The notes: generated by a model from the letters alone, not told the origin. A DNA stretch of 64,000 nucleotides from Acidimicrobiales bacterium (GCA_965115995.1 OZ220472.1:3384419-3448418); one strand, 5' to 3'; shown: positions 1,584 to 55,700, numbered from the stretch's first letter. Translations and numbers: made by a program.

Positions 1584-1727
1584 ATGATGGTCGTGACCTC
1601 TGACGCAACACGAACGGGACGCCTGAGGCGGTTCGGCTCGGCGTCGCTGGCGGTGCTGCTGGTGGCGTCGGTGCTGACGGTGGTGCCGCTTGGGCCACTG
1701 GGCGGTCAGCTGCCGGAGGCGGGGGCG
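1584..1727 (+). other. Sec-type signal peptide of the giant protein (predicted cleavage after AGA, residue 48)
   Basis: MMVVTSDATRTGRLRRFGSASLAVLLVASVLTVVPLGPLGGQLPEAGA|QTAAG. It has a basic n-region (RTGRLRR), a hydrophobic h-region and a small-residue A-x-A-like site. The cleavage position is a guess. Confidence 0.55.
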
Positions 1728-31700: not shown

Positions 31701-34700
31701 CCGTTCGCCGTCCACGAGACCACCGTGACCGACGACGACCAGGGGCTCGTGTTCATACCGACGCCGGTGACAGTGACCGAGGGAAGCAACGCCGAGTACA
31801 CGGTTCAGTTGTCCGCCGCGCCGAGCGCAGACGTCACCGTCACTGTCTCCGGGCAGGCCAGTACCGACCTATCGGTCGATACCGACGGCACCACGGGGGG
31901 CGACCAGGCCACCCTCACCTTCACCACCGGCAACTGGAACAAGCCCCAGACGGTGACCCTCACCGCCGCAGCCGACGGCGACGCCGACAACGACAAGGTC
32001 ACCTTGCGCCACACCGCCGCAGGCGGCGGCTACGTGTCGGTCACCGGCGACCTTGCCGTCACCATCGAAGACACCGACACACCGCCGCCGGCAGTCGACC
32101 TCTCCTTGGCCATTGCCGGCGGCGACAGCGACGGCAACATCGTCGAGGGAGCGACCGACGGGACGCAGTACGTCGACGTCACCGTCGCGCTGAGCCGCGC
32201 GCTGCGCGGAACCGAGACGATCACCGCTCCGCTCGAGGTGCTCGGCGCGACGGTGAGCGACGACTACACGCTCGTGCTCGAGCCGTCCTCTCAGACCGGC
32301 GTGTCGCTGACAACCACGGGCGGGACCCATACGGCGCAGAACCCGGCGGTGGAGTTTGCCGCAGGCGCGTCGTCAGCGACGCTGCGGCTGACGGCGGTGG
32401 ACAACGACGACCGCACGCAGCCGTATGTGGTCATCGGCTTCGGCAGCGGCTCGAAGGCGCCGAGCGGGAGCGGCGGCGCGACCGTGGGCAACAGCAGCGG
32501 CAGCGTCGGGTCGGTGATCGTCGACGACGAGACGGGCGACATCGAGGTGGCGTCGGACTGGGCGCTGGTGCCGTCGGGAACCTCGGGCGGCGACGAGTTC
32601 AGGTTGATGTTCATGACGTCGCAGGGCAGGGCTGCGGACTCCACAGACATTTCCGACTACGACGAATTCGTCCGCGCGGTGGGCGCGCGCCACGGCCACG
32701 AAGATGTCGTGCCCTACCTCGGTTTCTTCAAGACGCTCGGCGGCACTCAGGGGGTGCACGGCACTCCGCCGGGAGTGGCCGGGCGACACCACGTCGAGCT
32801 GTTCACCGGCACCAACCTCAGCGACTTCAGGGGCAACACCGTGGACGGTTCGACGTCTGCCGGCAGCGCGGGCACCCCCGTCCACTGGCTGAACGGCGAC
32901 AAGATCGCGGACAACTACTTCGACTTCTGCGACCAGTCGTGGGACAACCGCTGGACCAGCAGTGACAACGACCTCCGCCACGAGGACGGCACCGAGGGTG
33001 ACGGGAGCCGGGTGTGGACCGGGATGAGCAGCGATTGCGGCGAGAACAACAGGGCGCTCGGACAGTCCTACGTGATGTACGCACCCGGCACGGCGGCCAC
33101 GAACGGGTCCACGAGCTGGCCGCTCGCGGGCGGGGAAGCGGCCAACACCAACGCCTACCGCCTCTACGCCCTGTCGCCGGTGTTCACGGTGGAGTCATCC
33201 GATGTGGTGGTGTCGTGGGCGCCGGCTGACGGCGGTGATTTCCCTGGTCTGCGCGTGTTGAGGGAGGGGGGCCCGGGGTACGTCGTGGAGGTGTCTTTGG
33301 CCGGCGGCGCGACAGGTCCGGTGACTGTTCCTTTGGACGCCACGCTTCTTGGTGCGGACGAGAAGGATTTCGAGGTTCCCGACGAGGTGACCATTGCGGC
33401 CGGTGAGTCGTCGGCGACGTTCACCATTGAGGCGTTGGTTGACACAGAGTTGGAGGTCAACAACGAGCTGTTCTTGGTGACGCTGTGCCCGGCGGAGTCG
33501 TGTCCGGAGGGCTACACATCGGGCGACACGCCGCCGTCTATCTCTGTTTCGGTTGCGGATCCGGGCGTGGTGGCGGACTTCTCCAACCTTGTCGTTGTGG
33601 TAACGGACAAGGACGGGCTAAAGAGCGATGAGTATCAAGATGTCCGGGAGGGAGAGAGCACAACCGTCAGCGTGAAGCTGGAGGTCGATCCGGTGGTCGA
33701 TGTGACCATCACCCCCAAGGTGGTCGCGGGAAACCATCATGGCCCGAAGTTCGAGGACGAGTTCGTCAATGGAACCGCCACGGAATACGTCTTGGTGGAC
33801 ACGGACCCTGACAAGGCCGGCTTGCAGTCGACGTTGACGTTCACCGGCGGCGGCTCGGGCAATTGGAACACCGACCAGACGTTCACGCTGTATTTCGGTT
33901 ACGACGACGATGCTGTCACGGTCGATGAGCGCGCCACGCCGAATGTCGACGAGAGCCGAGATCATTACACGCTTGGTTTCCTCAACAGCGCGGCGAGCGG
34001 CCCCTACCAGGCTCAGACCATGCACGGCTTCGTCGGTGTCGGGATCAGAGACTTCTTGGTGCTCGACGCTGGACATGGCGTGGTGGTGTCGCAGGCGGCG
34101 GTGTCGGTGCGTGAGGACGCAACGGCCGTCTATGAGGTGCAGCTCGCCAGCGATCCCGGCGGCACGGTGGTGGTGACGCCCATGTCGGGGGCGACGACAA
34201 CCGCCACGTTCAGCCCCGCGACGCTGAGCTTCGACTCGTCGAACTGGAACGAGCCGCAGCAGGTGACCGTCACTGGCGTCGCTGAGGGCACTGCGACGAT
34301 CACCCACGAGGTGACGACTGCGACGACGGATTATCCGTCTTCGTTGATGGTGGGCTCGGTGGATGTGACGGTGCTTTCTTCTGACGTGCCGGTGGTGTCG
34401 TTCGGGTCGTCGGGTGGCGTGCCGGTGTTGGAGGGCGATGGGGTGGTGGCGCGTTTGGGTGTGGTGGTGTCGGGGACGCCGGTGGCGGGGGAGTTGGTGT
34501 TCCCCGAGAGGGTGTCGGTGCGTTATTCGGTGTCGGGCTCTGCGAGGCCGGGCACGAAGGCGAATTCGGCGGGCGCGGATGCGGTGGTGTCGTCGGTTGG
34601 TCTGACGGCGGACCGTGTCGGGCTGCCTTCCGGCCATACGGGTGCTGTGCCGCTCGGCCATGTCGAGGTCGCGTTGGCGGACGATGCGTGGGTGGAGGGC

Positions 34701-37700
34701 GCCGAGACGGTGGTGGTGACGCTGTTGCCGGGTTCGGGTTACACGCTGGGCGACCACACGGTACGGACGGTGCAGATCATCGACGACGACGCGGCGCCGG
34801 AGGTGCTGTTGAGCGTCGACACCAATGAGGTGTCCGAGGGCGACGGGGCGACGGCGGTGAGGGTGCGGGCGGAGCTGTCGAACGGTTCGCGGTTCGAGTC
34901 CGATGTGGTGGTGTCGGTCTCGGTGGACGGCTCGGGCGTTGAGGGCGCGGTCGGGTTCGCTGCGGTGGACGATTTCGATGTGACGATCCCTGCGGGCGGG
35001 TCGTCGGGGTCGGCATCGTTCACGTTGACGCCGACCGACGACGCGATTGACGGTCCCGATGAGGTGCTGTCGTTGTCGGCGTCTGAGGTGGCGCCTGCTG
35101 GTCTGACGGTGAAGCCGGCGTCGTTGTCGATCTTGTTGGTTGATGACGATGCGACGGCGGTGCGGTTCGGTGCTGGCGGGTTCGCGGCGGAGGGCGATGC
35201 GTCGTCGTCGGCGACCTTGAGTGTGTGGCTGGGCCGTGTGCTGGGCGCGGGCGAGTCGGTGGAGGTGACGCTGGCGGTCACGGGTGTGGAGGCGGGTGAT
35301 GTGGTGGTGTCGCAGCCTTCTGATGGGCGTGCTGGTGTGTCGATGCGCAATGGCGGCACGTTGTCGCCGGTGGTGGTGTTCACCGGCTCGGACGCGCAGG
35401 GTGTTTCGGTGGGGTTGGCGGAGCTGTCGGTGACCGCCGGCGATGATGCCGACAAGGTCCATGAGGTCGCGGTATTCGGTTTGGCGGCTGGGGCGGAGAC
35501 CCAGCCCGGCGGTGGTGTGGCGGTCGGGCCGGTGGGCGGTGGCGTGTCAGGGTCGGCTTCGGTGCAGGTGGTTGATGACGACGCCACGGCGGCGGCAGTG
35601 CTCGTGTGGCCCGGTTCGGTGAGTCTGGTGGAGGGCGACGCGGACGCCGGGTCGGCGCGGGTGCAGGTCCGGTTGAGCGAGCAGCCGGCCGGCGATGTGT
35701 CGGTGTCGGCGGTGTCGTTGGATGTGTTGGCGGTGCGGGTGTCGCCGGCGTCGCTGGCGTTCACCGGGTCTGATTGGGACGTGCCGCAGCCGGTGACGGT
35801 CACCGCTGCGGACGATGTGGACACCGACGCCGAGTCGGTGCTCGTGGCGTTCACTGCGGCGGGCCATGTTGCGGGTTTGGCGGGCGTGTCCGTCGCCGAC
35901 GGGGTGTCGAAGGCGCCGACCTTGGCGGACGCCGTGTTCAACGCTGTGCCTGATGACCTGGCGTTGGCTGAGAACGACCGGGGCCCGACCGATGTGGGCT
36001 CTGCGGTGACGGCGACCGACGCCGACGGCGACACGGTCACATACACGTTGGAGGGTCCGTCGCGCACGGCGCCGCCGGTCGGGTTCAAGATCGATTCTGC
36101 GACCGGCCAGATCTCCTACGGGCCGATACCCCATCGCCTCAGCGGGACGACGCCGGCGCCGGGCGTGGACCGCGAGGCCACGGCGCAGGTCGCGTTGGTG
36201 GTGGTGGCCACCTCCATCGGCTCCGACGGCACTAGGACCGAGGTGCGCCAGCCGGTGTCGGTGACGGTCACCGACGTGGACGAGGGCGACGGCAAGGTTG
36301 TGGTTGCGGGTGCGCCGGTGGCGGGCCGTTCCACGCTGGCAGCGACAGTGTCGGGCGACCCCGACGGCGACCCCGCAGCGGGCTCGTCGTATGCGTGGCA
36401 GACATCCGCGGACGGCAGCACCGGGTGGACGGCGGCGACCGGCGACGGTCACGGCACCGCGGAGTATTCGGTGGCGACCGCCGACGTGGGCCGGCATGTG
36501 CGTGTGACGGTGGGCTACACCGACGGCGGCGGCAACAGCGAGTCGGTCACCTCCGAAGCCGTGGGACCGGTGGGGACGCTGGGCTTGCTGAACGCCGCAG
36601 TAGAGGTGACGTCCGCGCTGGGCTCGGACGCGGATCACACCAGCGAGACCGCGCGGATCGCAGTGTCGTTGGACGCGGCGGTGCTGGCCGGCGAGTCGGT
36701 GACGGTGCCGTTGGCGTTCACCGGCGGCACGCTGGACACCGATTTCACTTTGGCGACCTCGGGCACCGGCGTGTCGTTGAGCGGCTCGTCGGTGAAGTTC
36801 ACCGGCCCCGCAGCTTCCACCGCCACAGTGGAAGTCACCGCGGCGTCGGCTGCGGCGCTGGCGGACGTGATGACGGTCGCGCCGGGCACAGTCGCGGCAA
36901 CGGGCGACTCGCTGGGCGGGACGACACTCAAGACGGCGCTTGTGGGCGACGGCGAAGTGTTCACCGGCGCCGTATCCGAACCAGACCCCGATCCCGATCC
37001 GGTGACGGTGACGCTGGCGCGCACGGACAGCGGCACGATCAGCGAGGCCGCGGGCGCGGCTGACCGCACTGCGATCTTCACGGTGACGCTGAGCCGGGCG
37101 CTGGTGTCCGGTGAGCAGTTGTTGCTGCCGGTGGTGTTCTCAGGCACGGACATCACCGCGGGCGACTTCACGCTGGCGTTGACGACGGGTGAGGCGAACA
37201 CCGGCGTGACGCTTTCCTCGACGTCGTCGTTGACGCGAACCGTCAGTTTCTCCACTGGCGGCCAGGTGGCGTCGCTGACGGTGACCGCGGTCGACGACGT
37301 TCTCAACGAGGGCACGAGCGAGACGCTGCGGGTCGCTCTGGGCGATCTCAGCGAGGTTCTCGACGAGTACCTCGCAGTGCCCGAGGGGGTGGCGGCGTAC
37401 GACGACGGCGATCCCAGCACCGACGACAACGAGTTTGAGGTGGAGATCATCGACGCCCCCGTCGTGGCACGGGTGCTGGTCGACCCCGTGGCGCTGACGG
37501 TGAGCGAGGGCGGCGTGACCGCCTCCTACACGGTGCGGCTCAACAGCGATCCCGGTGCTGCGGTGGTGATCGCCCCTGCTTCGGACGACACCGCGACCGC
37601 CACGGTCAGCGGTCCGCTCACGTTCGGTTCGGGCGACTGGGCCGTTCCCCAGACGGTGATCGTGACCGGCGTCAAGGCGGGTAGCGCGACGATCAGCCAC

Positions 37701-40700
37701 ACTGTCACCACTGCTGCGACCGACTACCCGGCGAACATGTCGATCCCGCCGGTCGCGGTGACGGTGAGCGCACTGGCGTCGCTCACGCTGACTGAGGGAA
37801 CACCCGCGTCGCTGAGGCCTTTCGATCTCAGTTCGCAGCCGACGCGCGACGTGCATATCACGTTCAGGTCGCTGTCGCCCGAACTGGTGATGGTGAACAC
37901 CCCCGGCGGCACCGCAGCAGCAGCTCAGACGGTGACGTTCACGCCCGAACTGTGGAATGTTCTCCAGACCGTCGTCTTCGAACCCGCCGACGACAACGTA
38001 GACACGCCCGGCGGCATAAAGGCCACCGCGATCATCACTCGGTCGCTTTCGTCTGAAGACCCCCAATACGCCTCCATAACGCTCAGCGCTATTGGGGCGA
38101 CCATCCTCGACAACGACCCGACGGTGGCGAGCCTGGGCCGCAGCGACTCGGGCGCCATCGCCGAAGGCGGCAGCGGCACCGCGGCCGGTGCAGAGTTCAC
38201 GGTCACGCTGAGCCGTCCGCTGGTCGCGGGTGAGACGATCGAGGTGCCGCTGGTGGTCTCCGGTCCGGGAGTCGTCGCGGGCGATGTGGCCTTCGCCCTG
38301 TCGGGGAGCTCGAACCACGGCGTCACTGCGTCGGGCCTCACGAACTCGCTGGCGCCCACGGTGACGTTCGCCGGCGACGGGGTCAACACGGTGCAGACCG
38401 CCACTGTCACCATGACCGCGGTCGACGACTCCAGCGCCGAGGCGACCGAGTCGGTGACCGTCGCCCTCGGCCCCGACGGCGGCGCAGCGAACGGCTTCGA
38501 CTTGGCGGCACGGGCCACCAATGTGGCCGGCGGCGCCGACCCGCACTCCTCCAACAGCAGCTTCACGGTGAGCGTGACCGACAACGAGCCTGCCGCTGCT
38601 GCCGCCGACGCGGTATTCGACGCCGTGCCTGCCGATCTGGTGATCGCCGAGAACGCAGACGGTTCGACTACCGCGGTGAAGGTGGGCTCGCCGGTGACCG
38701 CTACCGACGTCAACGGCGACGCCGTCAGCTACACGCTCGAGGGCCGTTCCGGCGGGGCGGCCCCGACAGGGTTCGTGATCAACTCGGCCACCGGCCAGAT
38801 CTCCTATGAGGGCGCCGGACTCGACCGTGAGATCGCCGCCTCGGTTGCGATGACGGTGGTCGCCACCTCGGTGGGCGCCGACGGCTCGGCCACCGATGTG
38901 CGTCAGGACATCACGGTGACCGTGGCCGACGTCAACGAAGGCGCCGCCACCGTCACGGTGTCGGGCACCCCCATAGCCGGCCGCTCAACGGTGACCGGGT
39001 CGGTGTCGGGCGACCCCGAAGGCGACCCGGCCGCAGTGACGACCTACCAGTGGCAGATCGCTCGCCAACTCGGGGCCACTTGGCGGCTGGCGCCCGGCGA
39101 GGGTAAGTCCACCGCTTCCTATGAGGTGGCCGCCTCTGACGCTGGCCAGGTGCTGCGCATGGTGGCCATATACAACGACGGCGCCGGCAACCGCGAAGTC
39201 GTGGCCTCGACGCCGGTGCAGGTCGGGGTGCTGGCCGCGCTGAAGGCGACGGTCACCGTCACCGAGGCGCTTGCCAGCGACGCCGACCACACCAGCGACA
39301 AAGCCCTCGTCACCGTCACCTTGAGCGAGCCGCTGGTCGACGGCGAGAGCGTGCAGGTGCAGATCGACGTCGACGGCGGCGAGCCCCCCACCGATTACAC
39401 CGCGAAAAAGGGGCCGGGCATGCCTGCGACCGTGAACGCCTACGCGTTCGCGGAACGAGACGGGGACGGCACGGGCGGGATATCGGTCATCTTCCGCACT
39501 GACGGGGAGGTCCCCCCGACCACAGCCACAGTGGAAGTGTCCGCCACCACCGCCGCGGCGCTCAACAAGAAACTCGCCATCACCTCGCCGAGGCTGTTGA
39601 ACACCCACCGAAGCGCGTCGCTGGAGGGCACCGAGCTCACCGCGTCGCTGTCCGGCAGCCGTGTGCTGTTCACTGGCGAGCCCGCCCCTGTCCCGGTGAC
39701 CGTGACGTTGGCCCGCACCGACAGCGGCCCGATCACCGAGAACCCCAAAGCGAATGCCCCAGCGCGTGAGGCGACCTTCACGGTGACTCTGGGGCGGGCT
39801 TTGACCGCGAGCGAGCTGGTGGACGTGCCGCTGGTGCTGTCGGGCACCGACATCACCGCATCCGATGTGTCGCTGGCGTTGACGTCTGGTGAGGCCAACA
39901 CGGGCGTTTCGCTGTTGGAGGTTTCGTCGTTGGGGCCGGTGGTTCGCCTGTCGGGTGCGGGCGCTCGGGTGGCGGCTGTGTCGCTGTTCGCCTCGAACGA
40001 CGCGGTCGATGAGGACGCCGAGATGCTGACGGTCGGGTTGGGTGACCTGTCGGCGGAGAGCCTGGGCACACAAGTGGCCGCCGGTGCAGAGGCAGGGGCG
40101 GGCGCGAACTCGTTCGATGTGACCTTCAACGACGACGACACGGCGGGTTTGTCGCTGAACAACGTCGTGGTCGGCGCGCCGTTCAGCGTGGACGAGCCCT
40201 CCGGCACTGTGTCGGTGTCGGTCGCCTTGGAGTCGCAGCCGACCCATGATGTGACCGTCACGATCGCTAGCGGCGCGGCGTCGGCGCTGCTGGTGAGCAC
40301 CGGGGGCGGTCAACCGGCCGCATCGGTGCAGTTGACGTTCACTCCGACGAATGTGTCGAACGCGCAGACCGTCAAGTTGCACGCAGTCGACGACAGCGTG
40401 GTGAACGGGGGCGGGTCTCGTGCGGTGTCGGTGGGCTTCGCGGCGGCCAGCACCGACCCGAAGTATCAGGGCCTGTCGGAGTCGCTGTCGGTGAGAGTGC
40501 TCGACGACGATCAAGACGAGGAGCTGCCCCAGGTGCAGTTCACCAGCGACGCCTTCACCGCTTCGGAGGCTGCGGGCAGCCGGACCGCGACGGTGAGAGT
40601 GTTGCTGTCGCCGGCGCCGCAGGTCGACACGACGCTGCGGTACGCGACGTCCAGGTCCGCAACCGAAGGAGTCGACTACACGAAGCTGTCGCACAGGGTG

Positions 40701-43700
40701 TCGGTCCCGGCCGGGGCGACCACGGCGACGATCCCGGTCGTGGTGCTCGACGACGCAGTCGATGAGCCGCCCGAGACGATTGAGCTGGAGCTCAGCGCCA
40801 ACGACGACGACGGCTATCGGTTGGGCTCGACAGTGGTAACCACGGTCACGATCGTCGACGACGACGCCACCACCGTGAGCTTGGCGCGGTCCGGGGGCAG
40901 CGGCCCGATCCCCGAGGGCGGCACGGTGGATGTGACTGTGTCGCTGAGTCGTGATCTGGCCGTGGGCGAGACCGCGGCGGTGCGGATGCTGCTGGGCGGC
41001 GGCAGCGGTTTGGCCGCGTCAGATGTGACTGTGTCGTCTAAGGGGACGTACTGCTGTTTCTCGGTGGGGGCGGTGTCGGGCAGCGCCGGGAACCTGTACG
41101 CGGTCGTCACCTTCCACGAAGGGGCCCAAATCGTGGAGCTGACGCTGACCGCAGTCGACGACAACACCGATGAGACCGCGGCAGCCGATTCGGACTCGAT
41201 GACGGTGTCGTTGAGCCTCGCGAGCGCGGTGGCTGACGGCACGAACCTGGGCGGCGGGGTCGTAGCGGCCGACGACGGCGACCCTGCCACGGTCGACAAC
41301 AGCTTCGATGTGGAAGTCATCGACGATGATGGCACCGCGGGTGTGGTGGTGGCCGAGTCCGGCGGCGGCACCGCGGTGAGCGAGAACAACGCTGCGGCGA
41401 AGGGCGCGTCGGACACCTACACGGTGCGGCTGGCGACCGACCCGTCCGCGTCGGTGACGGTCACCGCGACGGCTTCGGGCGATGCGCAGGTGAGCGTCGG
41501 CGGCGGCGCGGCTGCTGCGTCGGCGCAGTTGACGTTCACGTCGTCGGACTGGTGGATGCCCCAGACGGTGACAGTGACCGCGGCGGCGTCCGCGAACGAC
41601 AGCACCGACAATGCGGGCTTCCGTTCGGGCAGCGTCGCGCACGCCGTGTCTGGCTACAGCACCGTGACGGCGGGACCTCAGGTGTCGGTGGACATCGTCG
41701 ATGACGAATCCACCACGGTGACTATCTCGGGCGACGGCGGGATGGTCGAGGGCTCGGGCGAGACGGTGGCGGTGACGGTGAGCTTGGGCCGGGCTTTGGC
41801 GGCTGACGAGGTGGTGGAGGTGCCGTTGTCGGTGTCGAGCAACACCGGCGCGGTTCTGGGCGGCCCGGCGAGGCTGTTGGAGCGCAGGCGCGCGCTGAAA
41901 TGGGCGGCGTCGGGCGACGGTGTGTCGCTGAAGGCAGATCGGTTGGCGAGTTCGGGGCCGTACAGGGCGCCGCTGGTGGTGCGCTTCGAAGGCGCAGGCG
42001 CGCAGAACGCGGTGATCACGTTCACCGCGGTGAACGGAGACGCCGACGACAAACGCGAGACGGTTCTCGTGCAGCTGCCTGCGACCGGGGCGGGGCTCAA
42101 CGCCGCTGCCCGCGGCACCAATGTGGGCGGCGGCCTGCGAACCGACGCCAGCGCGCACAGGCGGCGAGCCTCGATCACCTTGTTCGAACCGGACCAGCAG
42201 CGTGAGGCGTCGCTGTCCGTCTCGGGCGGCGGCACGGTCGCGGAGGGCGACTCGTTGACGGTGACGGTGACCCTCGACGACAATGCTCCGGCGAACCTGG
42301 AGATCCCGGTTCGGATGCGCACTTTGGGATTGCCGACCGCATCCAAAGCCGACTTCACGCTGTCCAACAACGGCATCGTGACGATCAGCAAGGATTCCAG
42401 GACAGGCACCATCACCCTCACCGCCAATACGGACAACATCACAGAGGGCGACGAGTTCCTGATCCTGGAGTTCGGGATCCTGCCCTCACCGGTCGTCGCA
42501 GCCGAACGCGGCGTCACCGCCAGGGTCACGATCACCGACGCCGCGGCGCCGGCCGATGTGGTGGTGTCGTGGTCGCAGACCGATGGCAGCGCGTTGCCGT
42601 CGGCGCCGAGGCTGGTGGAGGGCGACACCTACACGGTGAAGGTGTCGTTGGGCAGTGCTGCGCCTGCGGGCGGGGTGGTGATCCCGCTGGGGGTCGATCT
42701 CCTTACCGCAGAGGCGGCGGACTTGTCGATCCCAGCCGGCGTGGCCATCGCGGCGGGGCAGACGTCGGCGACGTTCGACGTGGAGTTCCTCGCCGACGAT
42801 CTGGTGGAGGACAACGAGCTGTTCAACGTGACGCTGTGCCCGGCGGCTTCGTGCCCGGCGGGCTACACCTCGGGTGATACGCCGCCGTTTATCGGCTTCA
42901 TCATCAAGGATCCGGGCATTGTGCTGGACGCCTCGGGGATCGCGTTCCTCCCCGACTCAACGGTCACGAAGTTGCTCGACGAGGGCGCCAGCGGCACATT
43001 GACCGTCGCCTTGGAGAGGGATCCGGTCGTCGACGCCACGGTCACTGTCCGGGTGATCGACGGCGACCAGAAGTCCAATTTCCAACAGTGGCTTGCTGCG
43101 ACCGAGACGGACTACATCGGGGTGGACACCGACCCCGACACTGCCGGCTTGCAGGACGAGTTGACGTTCACCGGCGGAGGTTCGGGCAACTGGAGTGTGC
43201 CGCAGACGGTTCGGGTGTATGCGCTGTATGACGATGACGCCGACACCGGTGTCCAGGATTACGACGAGTACACGGTCGGTTTGTTGAACCGCGCGGCGAG
43301 CGGCCCCTACAAGGCACAGGTCAATACCGTCGATGAGCACTTCTTGCTGCGGGTCGTCGACGCGGGCCACGAGGTGGTCGTGACGCCAACGGCGGTGTCG
43401 GTGGGCGAGGACGGCACGGTCGCCTATGAGGTGCAGCTCGCCAGCGATCCCGGCGGCACGGTGGTGGTGACGCCCACGTCGGGAGCGACGACCACCGCCA
43501 CGGTCAACCCCGTCACGTTGAGTTTCGACTCGTCGAACTGGAACGAGCCGCAGCAGGTGACCGTCACCGGAGTCGCTGGGGGGTCGGTGTCGGTCGCCCA
43601 CACGGTGACCACCGCGACCAGCGACTATCCGGCTGCTTTGTCGGCGCCTTCGGTGGACGTGACGGTGGAGGCTGCGTTTGCGCCGGTGGTGTCGTTCGGG

Positions 43701-46700
43701 TCTCCGTCGGGTGTGACGGTGAATGTGGTCGAGGGCGGTGTGGTGCGTTTGGGTGTGGTGTTGTCGGAGGCGGTGCCTGCGTTTGGTTCGTTGCCGGTGA
43801 GGTTCGAGGTGTCGGGGTCGGCGGCTGCGGGGACTGATTATGCGGCGTTGAGCGGCACGCTGGTGGTGGGGCCTGGGGAGTCGGGCGGCGAGATCGCGGT
43901 GCGGTCGATCAGCGACGTGTGGGTGGAGGGCGCCGAGACGGTGGTGGTGGCGCTGCTGGCGGGCGACGGGTACACGCTGGGCGCGGACAAGACCGCGACG
44001 GTGCGGATCGTCGATGACGACGCCCCGCCGGAGGTGTTGTTGAGCGCCGATGCCGCTGAGGTGTCCGAGGGCGGCGGCGCGGTTGATGTGACGGTGCGGG
44101 CGGAGCTGTCGGGCGTCTCGCGGTTCGAGTCCGATGTGGTGGTGACGGTGAGCGTTGCGGGTTCGGGTGTCGCCGGGGCGGTGGGGTTCGCGGAGGTGGC
44201 TGATTTCGATGTGACGATCCAGGGGGGCTGGTCGTTCGGCACCGAGACGTTCACGCTCACCCCCGAAGCCGACCAGGTCGACGAGCCGTCCGAGACGGTG
44301 ACCCTGTCGGCGTCGGGGGTGGCGCCTGCTGGTCTGGCGGTGTCGCCGGCGTCGTTGTCGATTTTGTTGGCCGATGACGATGCGACGGCGGTGCGGTTCG
44401 GTGGCGGCGGGTTCGTGTCGGAGGGCGATGCGTCGTCGTCGGCGGTGTTGAGTGTGTGGCTGGGCCGTGTGCTGGGCGCGGGCGAGTCGGTGGAGGTGCC
44501 GCTGGCGGTCACGGGTGTTGAGGCTGGCGATGTGGTGGTCGCGCAGCCTGCCGACGGGCGTGCGGGTGTGTCGGTGCGCGGCGGGGCGACGTTGGCGCCG
44601 GTGGTGGTGTTCACCGGTTCGGACGCGCAGGGTGTTTCGGTGGGGTTGGCGGAGCTGAACGTGACCGCCGGCGATGATGTCGACAAGGTCCATGAGGTCG
44701 CGGTGTTCGGTTTGGCGGATTCTGCGTCGACCGAGCCCGGCGGCGGTGTGGTGGTCGGGCCGGTGGGCGGCGGCGTTTCTGGGTCGGCGTCGGTGCAGTT
44801 GGTCGACGACGACGCAGACGCGGCGGCGGTTTTGGTGTGGCCGGGCTCGGTGGGTCTGGTCGAGGGCGACGCGGACGCCGGCTCGGCGGCCGTGCAGGTC
44901 CGGTTGAGCGAGCGGCCGGCCGGGAGTGTGTCGGTGTCGGCGGTGTCGTGGGATGTGTTGGCGGTGCGGGTGTCGCCCGCGTCGTTGGCGTTCAGCAGGT
45001 CTGATTGGGATGTGCCGCAGCCGGTGACGGTGACCGCGGTCGACGACTTGGACAGGACCGCCGAGTCGGTGACGGTGGCGTTCACCGCGGCGGGCCATGC
45101 GGCGGGGTCTGCGGGCGTGTCCGTGGACGATGATGTATCGAAGGCGCCGGTGTTGGCGGACGCTGTGTTCGCTGCGGTGCCTGATGATTTGGCGTTGGTG
45201 GAGAACGACCGGGGCCCGACCGATGTGGGCTCTGCGGTGACGGCGTCTGATTCCGACGGCGACACGGTCACGTATTCGTTGGAGGGCCCGTCGCGGGCGG
45301 CGCCGCCGGTCGGGTTCAAGATCGATTCTGCGACCGGCCAGATCTCTTATGGGCCGATACCCCATCGCCTCGGCGGGGCGACGCCGGCGCCGGGCGTGGA
45401 CCGCGAGGCCACGGCGCGGGTCGCGTTGGTGGTGGTGGCGACGTCGGTCGGCGCGGACGGCGCGGCGACGGCGGTGCGTCAGTCGGTGTCGGTGACGGTC
45501 ACCGACGTGGACGAGGGCGACGGCGAGGTCGTGGTCGCGGGTGTGCCGGTGGCGGGCCGCTCGGCGCTGACGGCTTCGGTGTCGGGCGATCCCGACGGCG
45601 ACCCGCAAGCAGCGTCGTCGTATGCGTGGGAGACGTCCGCGGACGGCAGCACCGGGTGGACGGCGGCGACCGGCGACGGTCACAGCACTGCTTCATATTC
45701 GGTGGCGGCCGCCGATGTGGGCCGGTATGTGCGTGTGACGGTGGGCTACACCGACGGCGGCGGCAACAGCGAGTCGGTCACCTCCGATGCGACGGCCCAG
45801 GTGGGGACGCTCAGTCTGTTGAACGCCGCAGTCCAGGTCACGTCTGCGCTGGGTTCTGGCGCGGACCACACCAGCGAGACCGCACAGATCGAGGTGTCGT
45901 TGGACGCGGCGGTGCTGGCCGGCGAGTCGGTGACGGTGCCGCTGAGCTTCACCGACGGCACGCAGGGCACCGATTACACGTTGACGCTGTCGGGTTCGCC
46001 GTCGGGAGTGGCACTGAGCGGCGCGTCGGTGGTGTTCACCGGCCCCGCCGCGTCCACCGCCACTGTGAAGGTGACTCCGGCGTCGGCTGTGGTGCTCGGC
46101 TCAAGGCTGACCGTCGCGCCGGGCACGGTGACGCTGACGGGCGCGTCGCTGGCCGGCACGACAGCCAAAGCCTCGCTGGTGGGCAACCCCAGGGTGTTCA
46201 CCGGCACCGGGCCGGTGACTGTGACGTTGGCCCGCACTGACAGCCGCAGCATCACCGAAGACCCCGAAGCGGCCGACGCGGCGCGTTCGGCGACGTTGAC
46301 GTTGACGTTGGGGCGGGTGCTGAAAGCGGGCGAGACGGTGGACGTGCCGCTGGCGCTGTCAGGCACCGACATTGCTGCGGCCGATGTGTCGCTGACGCTC
46401 ACGGCCGGTGAGGCGAACACTGGTGTGTCGTTGCGTGGTTTGTCGTCGCTTTCGCCGGTGGTGCGCCTCAACGGTGCGGGGGCGCAGGTGGCGGCGGTGT
46501 CGCTGTGGGCGTCGAACGACCCGATAGACGAGGACGCCGAGACGCTGACGGTCGCGTTGGGCGATCTGTCGGCGAACATTCTCGCTACGAACGTGGCCCA
46601 CGGCGCAGCAGCCGCCGCGGGCGCGAACTCGTTCGATGTGGTGATCGACGACGACGACACCGCTGCGCTGGAGACCGCTGTCGCGGGCGGTGTGCTGCGG

Positions 46701-49700
46701 GTGGCCGAGCCGTCGGGGACCGGCACGCTGCTGGTGGCGTTGGCGACCCAGCCCACCAGCAACGTGACGGTCACGGTGACCAGCGGCACCAGCTCGGCGC
46801 TGCTGGTCAGCACCGCGGGCGGCGCGAAGGCCGCTTCGGCGCAGTTGACGTTCACACCGGCGAATGCGCTGGTGTCCCAGCCGGTGACCGTGCACGCCGT
46901 CAACGACAACATCGACAACACCGGCGATGTGCGTGATGTGGCGGTGACAGTGTCGTCGTCGAGCAGCGACACCAAATATCAGGGCCCGACCGAGACGGTG
47001 AACGCGAAGGTGGCCGACGACGACCTGCCCGCGTCGACGCGGCCGCAGGTGCAGTTCACCAGCGCGACGCACACCGCCAGCGAGGCTGCGGGGGACCGGG
47101 CGGTGTCGCTGGCGTTGAGCGTGTCGCCGGCGCCGACTACGGCTGTGACCGTCCGCTACACGGTGACCGGCACCGCGTCATCAGGTAATGATTTCACGGC
47201 CTCGTCGGGCACCGTGGCCGTCGCGGCGGGCGCAACGACGGTGTCGATCCCGATACAGGTGCTCGACGACGCCGTCGATGAACCGTCTGAGACGGTCGTG
47301 TTCACCCTCGACGACAGCAGCGCCTACAGCTTGGGCTCGACCGCGGCGGCGACGGTGACGGTGGCCGACGACGACGCCACGGTGGTGCGTCTGGCGCGGG
47401 TCGACGGCGGCCCGATCGCCGAGGGCGAGACGACAGGCGACAAGGCCGACGCGGAGTTCACGGTGAAGCTGGGCCGGGCGCTGGCTGCGGGCGAGGTCGT
47501 CGAGGTGCCTTTGGTGCTGTCTGCGTTGAAGGGCTCGGGCAGCGATGTCACCGCCGCTGACGTGAACGTGGCGGCCAAGGCGGGCGGCACGCTCAACAAG
47601 GGTGTGGCGGTCGCGGCTGGCGCGTCGTTGGCGCCGACGGTGACGTTCACCGGTCACGCCACCGATGCGGTGCAGACCGCGACGCTGCTGCTGTCGTCGC
47701 CTGATGACAGTGTCAGCGAGTTCCAGGAGAAGGTCTCGGTCGCCCTCGGCCCCAACGACGCTACGGCGACCGGGTTCGGCCATTCCGGGAGGGCGACGAA
47801 CGCGGGCGGCGGCGCCGTTCCGCACCGCTCGGCCGGCTCGTTCAATGTGGCGGTGCTCGACGGCGCTGCGGTAACGGTGACGCTGTCGGGCGGCGGCGTG
47901 AACCTCGTGGAGGGTTCGGGCCAGACGGCGACGGTGACGGTCACGCTGGGCCGGGTCCTGGTGGCCGGCGAGGTGGTGGAGGTGCCGTTGACGGTGACGA
48001 GCTTCACTCAGGCGATCCTGTCGGGACCGGCCCGGTTGTTGGAGCGGATGCGGGCGCTGAAGTGGACAGCTTCGGGCACCGGGGTGACGCTCAAGGCGGA
48101 CCCGCTGGGCGGCGCGGGCCCCTACAAGGCGCCGCTGGTGGTGCGCTTCGACGGAGCCGGCGCCGGGACCGCGACGATCACGTTCACCGCGGTGAACGGC
48201 GACCGCGACAACAAAGACGAGACGGTGAAGGTGCTGGTGCCCCAGGGCGGGCTCAACGCGGCTGCCCGCAAGACCAATGTGGGCGGCGGCCTGGTGCGCA
48301 GCAGCCAGCAGCACGAGCAGCTGCGCAACATCTATCTGATCGAGCCAGGCAACGAGCTCGAAGCTTCGCTCGCCGTCTCCGGCGGCGGCACGGTCGCCGA
48401 GGGCGGCTCGTTGACGGTGACGGTCACGCTCGACAAGAACGCGTCGGACGATCTGAGCATTCCGGTTCGGATGCGCACCCTCGGCCTGCCCACCGCATCC
48501 AAAGACGACTTCACGCTGTCCAACAACGGCGTGGTCGCGATCAGCAGCGGCGCCAAGACAGGCACCATCACGTTCACCGCCAACGCTGACAGCATCGCAG
48601 AGCCAGACGAGTTCCTGATTCTCGAGTTCGGGATCCTGCCCTCGCCGGTCATCGCAGCCGAACGCGGCGTCACCACCAGGGTCACGATCACCGACGCCGA
48701 CGCGACCGACGGCGTGACCCTGTCTGAGGAGGCTCTCACCCTCACCGAGCTCGGCAGTGCCGGCACGGTCGAGAAGACCTACACGGTGGCGCTCGACACC
48801 GACCCGGGCGCGGACGTGACCGTCACCGTCGCCTCCGCCGACATGACGGCGGTAAAAGTGGACACCGACAGCGCCACGGCGGGCGACCAGTCCATGCTCA
48901 CCTTCACCCACGGCAACACCGGGAACTGGAACACGGCGCAGACGGTGACGCTGCGCGCTGTCAACGACGGCGACGCCGCAGCCGAGACCGTCACCGTCTC
49001 GCATGCCGCGGCGGCGGCCGATACCGACAGCCCTTACCACCAGATCGATATCGCAAACGTGTCTGTGACCACTGTCGACGCCGGCCACGGCGTGGTGGTG
49101 TCCAAGGTCGCCGTGTCGGTGTATGAGGACTCCACGGCCGTCTATGAGGTGCAGTTGGCGAGCGATCCGGGCGGGACGGTGGTGGTGACTCCCACGTCGT
49201 CGGCGACGACAACCGCGGCGGTGAGCCCCGTCACGTTGAGTTTCGACTCGTCGAACTGGAACGAGCCGCAGCCGGTGACGGTGTCTGGTGTGGCTGCGGG
49301 CACTGCGACGGTCACCCACGAGGTGACGACTGCGACGGCGGATTATCCGACCAGCATGTCGATCGCGTCGGTGGGTGTGAAGGTCGCCGCGGTGGTTGTG
49401 CCGGTGGTGTCGTTTGTGAACTCGAAGGACGTGTCGGTTGCGGTGGCGGAGCGTCTGGCTGGTGATGCGGCACGGCTGCGTGTCCGTTTGTCGGAGCCGG
49501 TGCCGAGGGACTCTTCGTTGTCGGTGGCTTATTCGGTGTCGGGCACCGCCGGCGCCGGAACCGACTACGCCGCGCTCAGCGGTGATTTGGTGCTGGGCCC
49601 GGGCACTTCGAGCGGCGAGATCGTGGTGCGCCCGATCGATGACGTGTGGGTGGAGGACGCCGAGTCGGTGGTGGTGACGCTGATGGCGGGCACCGGTTAC

Positions 49701-52700
49701 ACGCTGGGCGAGAACACTGTGGGGAAGGTGCAGATCAACGACGACGACGCGGCGCCGCAGGTGTCGTTGAGCACCGATGTCGTTGAGGTGCCTGAGGGCG
49801 GCGGCGCGGTTGATGTGACGGTGCGCGCGGAGCTGTCGAACCGGTCGCGCTATGAGTCCGATGTGGTGGTGACGGTGAGCGTTGCGGGTTCGGGTGTCGC
49901 CGGGGCGGTCGGCTTCGCGGAGGTCGACGATTTCGATGTGACGGTCCGGGCGGGCTGGTCGTTCGGGACGGCGACGTTCACGCTCACCCCCGAAGCCGAC
50001 CAAGTCGACGAGCCTTCCGAGACAGTGTCGCTGTCGCCGGTGGTGGTGTCGCCTGCGGGGTTGGCGGTGGCTCCGGCGTGGATTTTGTTGTCGGACGACG
50101 ATCCGACTGCGGCGCGGTTCAGCGGCGGCGGGTTCGCAGCCGAGGGCGATGCGTCGTCGTCGGCGACGGTGTTCGTGTGGCTGGGCCGCGCGCTGGGCGC
50201 GGGCGAGTCGTTGAGGGTGCCGCTGGCGGTCACCGGAACCGGTGTCGAGGCCGGCGATGTGGTGGTCGCGCAGCCTGCGGATGGGCGTGCGGGCGTATCG
50301 GTGGAGGGCGGCAACACGCTGGCGCCGGTGGTGGTGTTCACCGGCTCGGGCCAGCAGGGCGTGCAGGTGGACGCGGCGGAGCTGAAGGTGACCGCCGGCG
50401 ATGATGCCGACGAGGTCCATGAGGTCGCGGTGTTCGGTTTGGCGGATTCTGCGTCGACCGAGCCCGGCGGCGGTGTGGTGGTCGGGCCGGTGGGCGGCGG
50501 CGTTTCTGGGTCGGCGTCGGTGCAGTTGGCCGACGACGACGCAGACGCGGCGGCGGTTTTGGTGTGGCCGGGCTCGGTGGGTTTGGTGGAGGGCGACGCG
50601 GACGCCGGCTCGGCGGCCGTGCAGGTGCGCCTCGGCTCGCAGCCGAGCGGGAATGTGTCGGTGTCGGTGGTGTCGTGGGATGTGTTGGCGGTGCGGGTGT
50701 CGCCCGCGTCGTTGACGTTCACTAGGTCTGATTGGGATGTTCCGCAGCCGGTGACGGTGACCGCGGTCGACGATTTGGACCTCGACGACGAGTCGGTGAC
50801 GGTGGCGTTCACTGCGGCGGGCCATGCGGCGGGTTCGGCGGGTGTGTCCGTGGACGACGGGGTGTCGAGGGCGCCGGCGTTGGCGGACGCTGTGTTCGCC
50901 GCGGTGCCAGGTGATCTGGCGTTGGTGGAGAACGCGGATGGCTCGACTACGCCGATAGCGGTCGGCTCTCCGGTGACCGCGTCGGACGCCGACGGCGACA
51001 CGGTCACGTACTCGTTGGAGGGCCCGTCGCAGGCGGCTGCGCCGGCGGGCTTCGCCGTTGCCGAGGCGACCGGCCAGATCTCCTATTCGGGTACAGGGGT
51101 GGACCGCGAGGCCACGCCGCGGGTCGTGTTGGTGGTGGTGGCGACGTCGGTCGGCGCGGACGGCGCGGCGACGGCGGTGCGTCAGGCGGTGTCGGTGACG
51201 GTGAGCGATGTGGACGAGGGCGACGGCGAGGTCGTGGTTGCGGGTGTGCCGGTGGCGGGTCGTTCGGCGTTGACGGTGTCGGTGTCGGGCGATCCCGACG
51301 GCGACCCGCAAGCAGCGTCGTCGTATGCGTGGGAGACGTCCGCGAATGCGGGCGGGCCTTGGTCGGCGGCGACCGGCACAGGCGCCGGCACCGCTTCGTA
51401 TTCGGTGGCGGCCGCGGATGTGGGCCGGTATGTGCGTGTGACGGTGGGCTATGTCGACGGCGGCGGCAACGGCGAGTCGGTCATCTCCGAAGCGGTGGGT
51501 CCGGTGAGGACGCTCAGTCTGTTGAACGCCGCAGTCCAGGTCACGTCTGCGTTGGGTTCTGGCGCGGACCACACCAGCGAGACCGCACGGATCGAGGTGT
51601 CGTTGGACGCGGCGGTGCTGGCCGGCGAGTCGGTGACGGTGCCGCTGAGCTTCACCGGCGGCACGCTGGGCACTGATTTCACCCTGGCGCTGTCGGGTTC
51701 GCCGTCGGGAGTGGCGTTGTCGGGTGCGTCGGTGGTGTTCACCGGCCCCGCGGTGTCTAGAGCGACCGTTGAGGTGGCCCCGGCGTCGGCGGTGGCGCTC
51801 GGCGCCGAGTTGACCGTCGCGCCGGGCGTGGCCGCGGCGGCGGGAGCGTCTTTGGGCGGCACGACGGTGAAGGCGGCGCTGGTGGGTAACAGCAGAGTGT
51901 TCACCGGCGCCGGTCCGGTGACTGTGACGTTGGCCCGCGCTGACAGCCGCAGCATCACCGAAGACCCCGAAGCGGCCGACGCGGCGCGTTCGGCGACGTT
52001 GACGTTGACGTTGGGGCGGGTGCTGAAAGCGGGCGAGACGGTGGACGTGCCGCTTGTGCTGTCAGGCACCGACATTGCTGCGGCCGATGTGTCGCTGACG
52101 CTCACGACAGGGCAGCCGAACACTGGTGTGTCGTTGCGTGGTTTGTCGTCGCTGTCGCCGGTGGTGCGCCTGTCGGGTGCGGGGGCGCAGGTGGCGGCGG
52201 TGTCGCTGGGGGCGTCGAACGACCCGATAGACGAGGACGCCGAGACGGTGACCGTCGCGTTGGGTGATTTGTCGGCGAGCATTCTCGCAACGAACGTGGC
52301 CGGTGGCGCGTCCGCGGCGGCGGGCAGGAACTCGTTCGACGTGGTGATTACCGACGACGACACGGCTGGGCTGGCGACCGTTGTCGTGGGTGGTGTGCTG
52401 CGGGTGTCGGAGCCGTCGGGGACCGACACGCTGCTGGTGGCGTTGGCGACCCAGCCCACCAGGAATGTGACGGTGACGGTGACCAGCGGCGACTCGTCGG
52501 CGCTGCTGGTCAGCACCGCGGGCGGCGCGAAGGCCGCTTCGGCGCAGTTGACGTTCACACCGGCGAATGCGCTGGTGTCCCAGCCGGTGACCGTGCACGC
52601 CGTCAACGACAACATCGACAACACCGGCGATGTGCGTAATGTGACGGTGACGGTGTCGTCGTCGAGCAGCGACACCAAATATCAGGGTCTGTCCGAGTCG

Positions 52701-55700
52701 GTGGCCGCGAGGGTGGCCGACGACGACGGGCCTGCGTTGCCGCAGGTCCAGTTCGCCCAGGCGGCTTACACCGCCGGTGAGCCAGCCGGTGATCGGACAG
52801 TGTCGCTGGGGATGGGCGTGTCGCCGGCGCCGACCGGGTCGTTCACCGTCGCCTACACGGTGACCGGCACCGCTGCGACGGGCGACGATTTCGCGGTGCT
52901 GTCGGGCAGCGTGGCCGTCGCGGCCGGGGCGACGACCGTCACGATCCCGGTGACGGTGCTCGACGACACGGTCGACGAGCCGCCTGAGACGATCGTGGTG
53001 ACCCTCGACGACAGCAGCGCCTACCGGGTCGGCTCGACCGCGGCGGCGACGGTGACGGTCGCCGACGACGACGCCACGGTGGTGCGTCTGGCGCGGGTCG
53101 ACGGCGGCCCGATCTCCGAGGGCGAGACGACAGGCGACAAGGCCGACGCCGAGTTCACGGTGAAGCTGGGCCGGGCGCTGGCTGCGGGCGAGGTCGTCGA
53201 GGTGCCTTTGGTGCTGTCTGCGTTGAAGGGCTCGGGCAGCGACGTCACCGCCGCTGACGTGAACGTCGCGGCCAAGACGGGCGCGTCGATCAACGCCGGT
53301 GTGGCGGTCGGCGCTGGCGGGTCGTTGGCGCCGACGGTGACGTTCACCGGTCACGCCACCGATGCGGTGCAGACCGCGACGCTGCTGCTGTCGTCGCCCG
53401 ATGACAGCGACACGTCGGAGTTCCAGGAGAAGGTGACGGTCGCCCTCGGCCCCGACGACGCGACGGCGACCGGGTTCGGCCATTCCGGGAGGGCGACGAA
53501 CGCGGGCGGCGGCGCCGTTCCGCATCGTTCGGCCGGCTCGTTCGATGTGGCGGTGCTCGACGGAGCGCCGGTGGTGGTGACGTTGTCGGGCGGGGGCCGT
53601 TTGTTGGAGGGCTCCAAGAACAGCGTGACGGTGACCGTAGAGCTGGACCGGGCGTTGGCGGCCGGTGAGGTGGCGGAGGTGCCCGTCACGGTGCAGAGCC
53701 TGACCCAGTCGATCCTGTCGGGCCCGGCGCGGCTGTTGGAGCGGATGCGGGCGCTGAAGTGGACAGCGACGGGCACCGGGGTGACCATCGGGGCCGACCC
53801 GTTGACGAACTCGGGGCCGTACAAAGCGGCGCTGCTGGTGGTCTTCGACGGCGCCGGCGCGCAGACCGCTCAGATCGAGTTCACCGCCGTGAACGGCGAC
53901 GCGGACCGTTCCAACGAGCGGATAACGGTGCGGATCCCCTCCACTGGGAACGCGCTCAACGCGCCGGCCCGCAACACCAACCTCGCAGGCGGCCTGGCGG
54001 CGGGGAGCCCGTCTTTGGCCGCGGTCAACCTGTTCGAGCCCGGTAGCGAGCTCGAAGCCACCCTCGCAGTCGACAACAACGGACAAGTCGCAGAAGGCGG
54101 CTCGCTGACGGTCACCGTCACCCTCGACGCCAACACCGACACCGAGGTGGACATCCCGGTGCGGATGCGCACCTTGGGTTTGCCGACCGCGTCGGCAGCC
54201 GATTTCACGCTGTCGAACAGCGGCGTGGTCACCATCAGCAGCGGCACCAACCAGGGCACCGTCACCCTCACCGCCAACACCGACAGCGTCACCGAGGCCG
54301 ACGAATTCTTGATCCTCGAGTTCGGGAACCTGCCCGTCGGCATCGTCGCAGCCGACAGCGGCGTCACAGCCAAAGTCACCATCACCGACGTGCAAGAGGC
54401 GGCGAACAGTGCGCCGACGGTGGCGAATGAGATTCTTGACCAGAAGGCGACGCCGGGTGCGGCGTTCAGCTACGTCTTTGCGGCGAACACGTTCAGCGAC
54501 GCGGACGGCGACGCGTTGACTTACACCGCCGCTGAGTCCGACGACACCGCCCTGCCGACGTGGCTGACGTTCGACCCCGCCAACCGCGCGTTCTCGGGCA
54601 CGCCGCAGTCAGCCGATGTCGGGACGCTGTCGGTGAAGGTGACCGCGGACGACGGCAACGACGGCACGGTCTCGGACACGTTCGACGTTGTGGTGCAAGC
54701 CTCGGTGGTGGTGGTGTCGGCGCCGGTGCTGAACCTGGTCGAGGGCGGGAACTCGGTGGTGTACAACGTGGTGTTGCGGACGCCGCCGCCGGGCAGTGAT
54801 CCGGTTGTGGTCACGCCGCGCATCGACGATGCGGGGGTGGCGGATTTCGACGGTGCTGGGGCGGCGACGGGTCCGACGTTGAGGTTCGACGCGGCCAACT
54901 GGGACAATCCTCAGTTGGTGGTTGTGTACCCGACATCCGATGCTGGCGCCACCGCGAATGGCAGGGCGACGATCACGCACACTGTCACCGGTTACGGCGC
55001 GGTCACGTCAGCGCCTCTTGTCGTCGTGCACCTCGTGGAGAGGTCCGACTCTGCGGGGTTGGTCTTGTCTGAGGACTGGGTGATCGTGGAAGAGGGCGGC
55101 AGCGCGTCGGTGGCCGTACGGCTGGCGTCGGCCCCGGCCGGCGAGGTCACGGTTTCGGTGACCGGCGCGTCGGGCGGCCTGTCGGTGGACTCGGGCGGCG
55201 CGCTGGTCTTCGGCCCCGACGACTGGCATCTCTCCCAGGTTGTGACGGTCAGCGCCGCGGACGAGTCCGACGCCTCTGACACCGACGACGAGACGTTCAC
55301 GCTGGTGTTCACGGCGTCGGGCGGCGGTTACGGGCCGGTGAGCGAGTCGCTCGCCGTGTTCGTGTACGACGACGAGTTCGCCGGCCCGACGTTCACGGTG
55401 ACGGGCGCGGACGCGGTTGAGGGCACCACACCGGCGGTGTTCACGGTGACCGCAGACCAGACGTTGAGCACGGCGGTGGATGTGGCGTTGAATGTCTCTG
55501 AGTCGGGGCATTTCGTGGCGTCGTCCGACGAGGGCGAACAGACGGTGTCGTTCTCGGCCGCGCAGCTCACCCGCACTCACAGCGTGCCGATCGTCGACGA
55601 TGTGAACGCGGAGCCTTCGGGTGAGGTCACAGCGGAGTTGGCACCGGGCACCGGGTATCACATCGGCGTTCCGTCGGTGGCGACGTCGACGGTGACCGAT

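Follow-up and report, generated by a model that had tools for sequence, protein, structure and literature searches.

The window analysed here, a stretch of 64,000 nucleotides from a sponge-associated Acidimicrobiales bacterium (GCA_965115995.1 OZ220472.1:3384419-3448418), is filled almost entirely by a single giant open reading frame (ORF) in which the base composition of the coding strand switches, at sharp junctions, from typical to skewed. Only the 3' zone of the ORF, which carries four copies of a super-repeat (SR) of ~5.7 kb sharing 75-83% identity by self-blastn of the window, is unusual. The skewed state, termed G/T-class, is that of a coding (non-template) strand poor in C and A and rich in G and T, most strongly at third codon positions, and C-class designates the genome-typical state. 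To judge from the substitutions reconstructed among homologous modules, the skew appears to be still maintained at present by an asymmetric regime that is specific to the G/T-class.

The change of strand composition and codon usage within the ORF, which an earlier note on this DNA had described with the help of five hand counts of 60-nucleotide lines (all of them exact), is real. At four-fold degenerate sites, the G:C:T:A counts pass from 2770:3315:359:358 in 1584-33189 to 2678:1564:449:157 in 33190-54050 (chi-square p = 8e-87), and G3f, i.e., G3/(G3+C3) at these sites, rises from 0.455 to 0.63 (p = 2e-69 for G vs C alone). The GC skew of codon position 3 ranges from -0.05 to -0.39 over the 5' 32 kb and reaches up to +0.42 in the super-repeats, codon positions 1 and 2 showing hardly any change in GC skew between the two; skews of +0.2 to +0.3 occur at 34-36, 43-46, 49-52 and 62-63 kb. 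In the skewed zone, T3 is also raised and A3 lowered, the share of TTG among the Leu codons passes from 12% to 36%, the codons GAT, TAT, GGT and CGT are all more frequent, and the encoded protein contains more Val, Ala, Ser and Leu and less Thr, Asn and Ile. The separate lists of preferred codons that had been drawn up for the two parts hold as directions of the shift but not as absolute preferences, since GTG and CTG are already the top Val and Leu codons of the 5' part and GGC is still the main Gly codon of the repeats.

A likelihood segmentation of the ORF places the main change point at 33171, in agreement with the switch previously proposed at 33190. The features delimited by the segmentation, and by the self-blastn for the super-repeats, are as follows:

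1584 to 64000 (partial), + strand: giant ORF of a predicted secreted Calx-beta/cadherin repeat surface protein (stop-free frame, signal-peptide-like N-terminus, Pfam matches)
33387-42543, + strand: SR-A, collinear with SR-B and SR-C, broken by a 2.7-kb insertion
~37349-39692, + strand: the 2.7-kb insertion found only in SR-A (offset from SR-A to SR-B 9231 before it and 6519 after it)
42741-48699, + strand: SR-B, G3f 0.644
49074-54390, + strand: SR-C, G3f 0.653
61714-64000, + strand: SR-D, cut by the end of the window, G3f 0.71
1752-33170, + strand: C-class (genome-typical) 5' part, G3f 0.45 (G 2732, C 3308, T 356, A 353)
33171-37895, + strand: G/T-class left part of SR-A, in three sub-segments
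33171-34304, + strand: sub-segment, G3f 0.60
34311-35798, + strand: sub-segment forming the core of left SR-A, G3f 0.79
35799-37895, + strand: sub-segment, G3f 0.61
37899-39758, + strand: C-class island inside the SR-A-only insertion, G3f 0.43-0.47 (p = 0.47 vs the 5' half)
39762-58175, + strand: G/T-class zone comprising right SR-A, SR-B, SR-C and the non-repeated 54.4-58.2 kb, mean G3f 0.65
~42234-42540, ~42975-43280, ~48390-49073 and ~54084-54390, + strand: small C-rich modules within the preceding zone
58179-61619, + strand: C-class island, G3f 0.46 (p = 0.75 vs the 5' half)
61623-63998, + strand: G/T-class segment, G3f 0.71

Both large islands that had been read from the sequence by eye are recovered by the segmentation (37899-39758, G3f 0.43, and 58179-61619, G3f 0.46), and at four-fold sites their composition is indistinguishable from that of the 5' half. 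The smaller islands pointed out at 48696-49073 and ~54050-54400 are seen as C-rich domains at ~48.4-49.1 and 54.1-54.4 kb, and further small C-rich domains occur at 33.6, 42.2 and 43.0 kb. Tested singly against the 5' half, each unit is shifted at p < 1e-13, the non-repeated 54400-58175 included (2e-31 for left SR-A at 33387-37348, G3f 0.674; 2e-34 for SR-B; 3e-35 for 54400-58175). Because every unit is shifted when taken alone, the non-independence of the paralogous copies does not create the signal; nor does the skew reflect amplification alone, the non-repeated 54.4-58.2 kb being as skewed as the repeats. The signal-peptide codons (1590-1751) form a separate G3-rich segment (G3f 0.82, n = 40) preceding the genome-typical 5' half.

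The earlier note had called the change a flip; a change there is, but it does not take place between opposite skews, because the 5' half is genome-typical and strand-symmetric, its T3 (356) and A3 (353) being balanced and its G3f of 0.45 resembling that of flanking and related genes (about 0.475). The flanking genes, taken from the window and from close relatives, have a G3f of 0.478, and in a related 20-kb locus anchored on transaldolase (L006) the genes of the + and - strands have values of 0.483 and 0.471, i.e., a difference of 0.012, with T3 and A3 about equal. Against this background, a small sample drawn in part from relatives, the skewed zone has an atypical composition (0.62-0.71 vs 0.475). 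The variance of z for G3f is 1.09 among the genes of the related locus, which show no over-dispersion, 2.4 in the 5' half of the giant ORF and 4.1 in its 3' half.

The shift is not only synonymous. Its synonymous part is present in every next-base and previous-base class and for Val, Ala, Thr, Pro, Ser, Leu and Arg, and at codon position 1 the frequency of A falls from 0.254 to 0.176 while that of G rises from 0.457 to 0.540. A comparison of 13 pairs of homologous modules straddling the two classes gives, at position 3, 353 C->G vs 91 in the opposite sense and 89 C->T vs 19, and, at position 1, 121 A->G vs 75 and 48 A->T vs 21, with no significant change at position 2. Over stretches of 110 codons, the keto (G+T) content of position 3 is correlated with that of positions 1+2, with a rho of 0.58 for the window and of 0.64-0.77 for four orthologous ORFs (L001, L002, L003 and L005), compared with 0.20 for ordinary genes. 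Because third-position keto content tracks that of positions 1+2, the shift is at the level of the strand rather than of the codon, and marks a pressure, mutational or selective, on the nucleic-acid strand of whole modules, unlike a choice of codons at the level of tRNAs.

Self-comparison of the window matches 43356-48696 with 49074-54390 at 83% identity and 33387-34473 with 42741-43767, and identifies 31721-33186 as a copy of 23864-25296. The 2.7-kb insertion of SR-A occurs neither in SR-B nor in SR-C, and the second island is collinear with modules of the 5' half (8244-8906 with 59958-60623, and 9409-9748 with 61046-61384). The compositional boundaries coincide with these junctions: 33171 marks where the copy 31721-33186 ends, the SR-A insertion contains the first island, and the second island is the counterpart of 8.2-9.7 kb. 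Two proposals of the earlier note, namely that the mutational or evolutionary past differs from one part of the ORF to another and that a unit was amplified, are thereby borne out, the former by the boundaries at repeat and insertion junctions and by the class-specific substitution regime, the latter by the four SR copies. Composition goes with the segment and not with the module family, since members of subfamilies c66 and c72, which share 54-56% amino-acid identity across the classes, are C-class in the 5' half and G/T-class in the repeats. The mosaic is older than the SR duplication, because the small C-rich modules (c55, c5 and c7) occupy corresponding positions in all SR copies. It also antedates the divergence of several lineages of sponge symbionts, and the amplification of the super-repeat extended the skew across more than 20 kb.

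Relatives of the SR unit with 72-87% amino-acid identity were found only in metagenome-assembled genomes (MAGs) of sponge-associated Acidimicrobiia, labelled Ca. Poriferisocius, Spongiisociaceae and Aldehydirespiratoraceae, and always inside similar giant ORFs. In a protein database, the repeat unit had one 75% match, in an orthologous gene, all others being at most 50% identical, and the N-terminal 900 amino acids matched only proteins of less than 1,600 amino acids at no more than 40% identity, no giant orthologue being present. The same compositional patchiness occurs in five further orthologous loci from sponge Acidimicrobiia MAGs, with G3f values of 0.19-0.84. Between two such loci from species-level MAGs (L001 1-6607 and L002 6628-13255), identity swings from 0.80 to 0.997 per 300 nucleotides, and some SR blocks of the window are nearer to paralogues of the same genome than to orthologues; because of both observations, recombination and gene conversion are considered to be active in the giant gene.

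The present substitution regime was approached through changes at four-fold sites polarised in triplets of two sisters and an outgroup, drawn from window paralogues and from the five loci, which yielded 648 changes at 4,576 sites; triplet parsimony replaced singleton parsimony, which gave too few events. In G/T-class modules, the per-site odds ratio is 2.3 for C>G vs G>C (p = 3e-6), 5.1 for C>T vs G>A (p = 1e-16) and 2.7 for total loss of C vs total loss of G (p = 1e-15), while all three ratios are ~1.0 in C-class modules. The inferred equilibrium G/(G+C) is 0.67 in the G/T-class (present value 0.75) and 0.46 in the C-class (present value 0.40), the latter corresponding to the genomic background. 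Among the G/T-class changes, 89 are G>C and 63 are C>G, where a symmetric decay would predict about 3:1, i.e., ~114:38 (p ~1e-6, by hand calculation). Two further checks carry less weight: in the non-repeated G/T-class stretch the transition asymmetry persists, with C>T at 9 of 51 sites and G>A at 6 of 174, and a very close pair of loci (L004 and L008) follows the same trend, on only 61 polarised events. It is because rates are asymmetric in the G/T-class and symmetric in C-class modules of the same gene that the skew appears to be maintained.

The reading tentatively favoured, at slightly less than an even chance, is that of a recombinational mosaic of two-state Calx-beta modules in which the skew is maintained, most plausibly by module-specific damage to the non-template strand together with gene conversion. 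Cytosine and adenine of the displaced non-template strand would be deaminated during transcription, module by module; R-loops over G-rich RNA might stabilise the displaced strand and so render the state self-reinforcing and patchy; and gene conversion among the repeat copies would help to preserve it. The coding-strand changes C>T, C>G and A>G match a deamination of single-stranded DNA. By analogy with immunoglobulin switch regions, a self-reinforcing, transcription- or R-loop-linked state could even be imagined within the modules, the displaced coding strand continuing to lose C and A and the non-template strand being kept G/T-rich in this way over tens of kb; this further step is decidedly unlikely, and, if true, such a state might lead the adhesin repeats of sponge symbionts to recombine and turn over more readily.

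A series of points weighs against the favoured mosaic. The background consists of ~1.1 kb of the region upstream in the window and of genes of relatives, and not of the whole source genome. A single G-quadruplex (G4) motif was found in the whole ORF (one in 30.8 kb), G-quadruplexes are not enriched, and G runs do not exceed those of synonymous shuffles (229 vs 239 for runs of at least 3 G, 47 vs 58 for runs of at least 4 G, z = -2.9). C-class modules of only 300 bp persist inside the skewed zone, which follows no simple positional rule, and the 3' ends of orthologues are extremely C/A-rich, so that distance from the promoter is not explanatory. In the non-repeated stretch, G>C (18) and C>G (8) are consistent with a symmetric decay. 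Parsimony is imperfect, its known bias being to over-count common-to-rare changes, although this bias works against the asymmetry seen. Conversion among G/T-class paralogues could mimic the restoring C>G changes. The reverse rates G>C, T>C and G>A are also lowered in the G/T-class, as a fixation bias would predict, and mutation bias and fixation bias are inseparable in these data.

Other candidate causes were tried and rejected. Methylation and deamination of CpG do not apply, as CpG is somewhat commoner than expected and NCG codons seldom undergo G>A, and neither G-quadruplexes nor G clusters qualify as a design feature in the lack of enrichment beyond composition. Dinucleotide context fails because the shift is found in all neighbour-base classes. 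Selection for weaker mRNA structure is contradicted by the folding of G-skewed 150-nt windows, and a selection for hidden off-frame stops (the ambush hypothesis) by the fact that such stops, in both classes, are fewer than in a shuffled null that keeps the codon usage of the region concerned.

Some of these same results bear on the rival explanations. That the skewed zone is the relic of a G/T-skewed cassette from another genome or replicon, amplified and now slowly ameliorating with no force maintaining it, is unlikely but deserves serious consideration. Its atypical composition, its boundaries at repeat and insertion junctions and the divergence mosaic between L001 and L002 (80-99.7% per 300 nucleotides), which shows active exchange of segments, all speak for it; the G<->C fluxes of the non-repeated stretch fit it as well, and a rough estimate of decay suggests that divergences of this size would not yet have erased a relic. 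The earlier note had suggested such an acquisition from elsewhere, which fares poorly in view of the restriction of close homologues to sponge Acidimicrobiia MAGs and of G<->C fluxes near balance: the G>C and C>G counts depart from the symmetric expectation, with an equilibrium at 0.67 and not at 0.47, and C>T far exceeds G>A in G/T-class modules only, the non-repeated stretch included. Moreover, modules of the same subfamily belong to both classes, mobility features are missing from the region, and no tRNA or Rfam feature was found there. A selection acting on the nucleic acid itself is rather unlikely; it might concern a more structured, G/U-rich and C-poor RNA that resists the loading of Rho wherever a very long mRNA has its translation uncoupled, or, more generally, any fixation bias towards keto bases in particular modules. 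The reciprocal raising of forward and lowering of reverse rates, the involvement of all codon positions and the greater stability of G-skewed 150-nt windows at equal GC (-68 vs -59 kcal/mol) speak for it, but G skew is lacking over the first 31.6 kb, in the islands and at the 3' ends of orthologues, no dominant k-mer or enriched motif emerges against synonymous shuffles, and off-frame stops are, as said, below the null.

A translational selection, in which G- and T-ending codons would serve to set the pace of elongation, the load on tRNAs or co-translational folding, is improbable: a module-specific, conserved and near-stationary composition would suit it, yet codon-level selection fits poorly because positions 1+2 and the amino acids shift in the same keto direction, synonymous first-position changes from CTG to TTG increase together with the T-ending codons, and the shift does not vary from one amino acid or context to another. 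The effect on translation speed that the earlier note had envisaged is unlikely to be the cause of the shift. An effect of replication has hardly any probability, whether through an origin at 33 kb or, as the earlier note had proposed, through a segment derived from a paralogue that lay on the other replication strand. The cumulative GC skew does reach its minimum at ~32-33 kb, and an excess of G over C together with T over A is the classic signature of a leading strand. The switch point, however, falls inside an ORF; matches to the DnaA box with at most one mismatch number 12 vs 11.7 expected, none of them clustered at 33 kb; no skew is seen in the 5' 31.6 kb of that ORF or in its two islands, of genome-typical composition, that interrupt the skewed zone; and the strand difference of the related genome is 0.012 in G3f vs 0.2-0.35 within the gene, which leaves the proposed origin on the other replication strand without support. 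Equally remote is an artefact of amino-acid content, of dinucleotide context, or of a chance founder composition that was then copied. The changed amounts of Val, Ala, Ser, Leu, Thr, Asn and Ile and the paralogous nature of much of the zone would allow for it, but four-fold sites show the shift for every amino acid and whatever the neighbouring base, and every single unit as well as the non-repeated stretch is significant.

With regard to the protein, the stop-free frame on the + strand extends from 1572 (first ATG considered, 1584) to 64000, where the window ends before the frame does, giving more than 20,800 amino acids; ~1.5 kb of window sequence lies upstream. Pfam matches include Calx-beta (PF03160; E = 3e-39 and 1e-46, 134 and 158 bits for a cut-off of 27) and Cadherin (PF00028; E = 4.5e-12, 46.6 bits for a cut-off of 28.8), and a hidden Markov model iterated on the protein itself detects ~127 Calx-beta-like and 8 cadherin-like modules spread over the full length. 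The N-terminus reads ...RLRRFGSASLAVLLVASVLTVVPLGPL..AGAQ, resembles a signal peptide by its sequence and represents a putative export signal. The protein is acidic (D+E ~12.5% vs K+R ~5%), rich in Thr (11-13%) and poor in Cys (0.1-0.4%), and, taken with the tandem modules, this composition designates a predicted giant Calx-beta/cadherin repeat adhesin. A recurring module of another type, with the motifs 'SDWALVPSG...FRL(M/L)F.TS...HWLNG.K.ADNY.DF.D.SWD...RLY.LSPVF', occupies 32481-33173 and 23864-25296 of the window and is also present in L003 and L005; in the window it ends precisely at the compositional change point 33171.

Several further observations concern the other reading frames and the neighbouring genes. 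The antisense ORFs do mirror the composition of the sense strand, as had been remarked earlier, but as a by-product of sense third positions read in the mirror frame; real antisense genes were rejected, these ORFs consisting of the reverse complement of sense codons with an Arg/His-rich junk composition. On the + strand, the five longest off-frame stop-free stretches (1.0-1.5 kb) all lie within the C-class 5' half, and G/T-class codon usage doubles the stops of the +2 frame (19.8 vs 8.8 per 1,000 codons). Upstream of the giant ORF, an ORF at 431-1129 (+ strand) contains 7.4 copies of a 33-nt tandem repeat (11 amino acids, 'AAEREADLxxR'-like) at 778-1020 and ends with a hydrophobic C-terminus; a small coiled-coil/transmembrane ORF resembling it stands immediately 3' of the giant gene in L003 (21205-21546). 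A transaldolase gene is convergent with the giant gene in L003 (21577-21987, - strand), its counterpart in L007 lying at 1084-1788 (+ strand), and shows an intragenic G3/C3 shift of its own, with a G3f of 0.33 in the N-terminal part and of 0.64-0.75 in the C-terminal part, for small samples. A regional strand skew spanning neighbours at the 3' end of L003 was not borne out, since this intragenic pattern of the transaldolase is retained in L007, where the context differs. The C/A-rich 3' ends of orthologues, L003 19600-20800 and L005 19200-20800, are the opposite extreme of the G/T-class, with a GC skew down to -0.41, an AT skew of +0.5 and a G3f of ~0.2, and code for Thr/Pro/Asp/Glu/Gln-rich sequence. 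In L004, a stop and a 243-nt gap (12454-12697) break the giant frame while homology continues across, and L008, sharing 95-97% identity with L004, falls into at least 5 separate ORFs; these breaks would be due either to pseudogenisation or to frameshifts of the assembly.

Atypical composition is routinely taken as a sign of horizontal transfer and a switch of GC skew as that of a replication origin, and the window gene fits neither. Intragenic mosaics of this kind can mislead island finders, origin predictors and measures of codon adaptation. Should the asymmetry be mutational, giant repeat genes would serve as natural indicators, in bacteria, of R-loops or of local damage to single-stranded DNA; should it be selective, it would point to constraints on the transcription or translation of mRNAs longer than 60 kb.

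Among known systems, strongly skewed genomes such as that of Borrelia reportedly display a leading-strand G/T skew with shifts of codons and amino acids, as is said to have been described by McInerney in 1998 and by Rocha et al. in 1999. The window resembles this type of skew by the excess of G over C and of T over A at synonymous sites, by more Val and other residues with G/T-rich codons and less Thr, Ile and Asn, and by the covariation of third-position skew and amino-acid content. It differs in that the skew is confined to modules of one gene, the rest of the ORF and the neighbours being unskewed and the related genome showing no strand difference. Deamination of the non-template strand associated with transcription has reportedly been described by Francino & Ochman, and immunoglobulin switch regions are R-loop-prone G-rich repeats. 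With both, the skewed zone shares a repetitive, kb-scale organisation, a G-rich non-template strand and an inferred excess of C>T and C>G on it. It differs in that its G clusters are no commoner than composition predicts, in that the whole ORF yielded a single G4 motif, and in that ordinary genes of these genomes show no coding-strand skew.

Sponge-symbiotic Acidimicrobiia are described, in the pertinent passages of PMC11706023, as enriched in Calx-beta and cadherin 'eukaryotic-like' proteins. The domain classes and the host-associated clade are those of the window gene, and domains are counted in those passages; a term search of that paper returned no mention of giant genes, and no treatment of composition was seen among the text so reached. 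As for giant repeat genes in general, a passage of PMC2528017 (SeqWord browser) citing Reva & Tummler 2008 ('Think big') attributes to them an atypical word usage and a raised strand 'pattern skew'. Like the known bacterial giant surface-protein genes, the window ORF encodes more than 20,000 amino acids in an acidic, Thr-rich and Cys-poor protein made of tandem adhesion modules. Unlike them, it shows an asymmetry resolved within one ORF, where sharp junctions set off a skewed half from a genome-typical one, together with a skew at four-fold sites and an asymmetric inferred substitution regime. A limited search of the literature found no earlier description of such an intragenic mosaic. Compared with these systems, what appears to be new is the sharp alternation of typical and skewed segments in a single ORF, its demonstration at four-fold sites and the evidence for a class-specific asymmetry of substitution.

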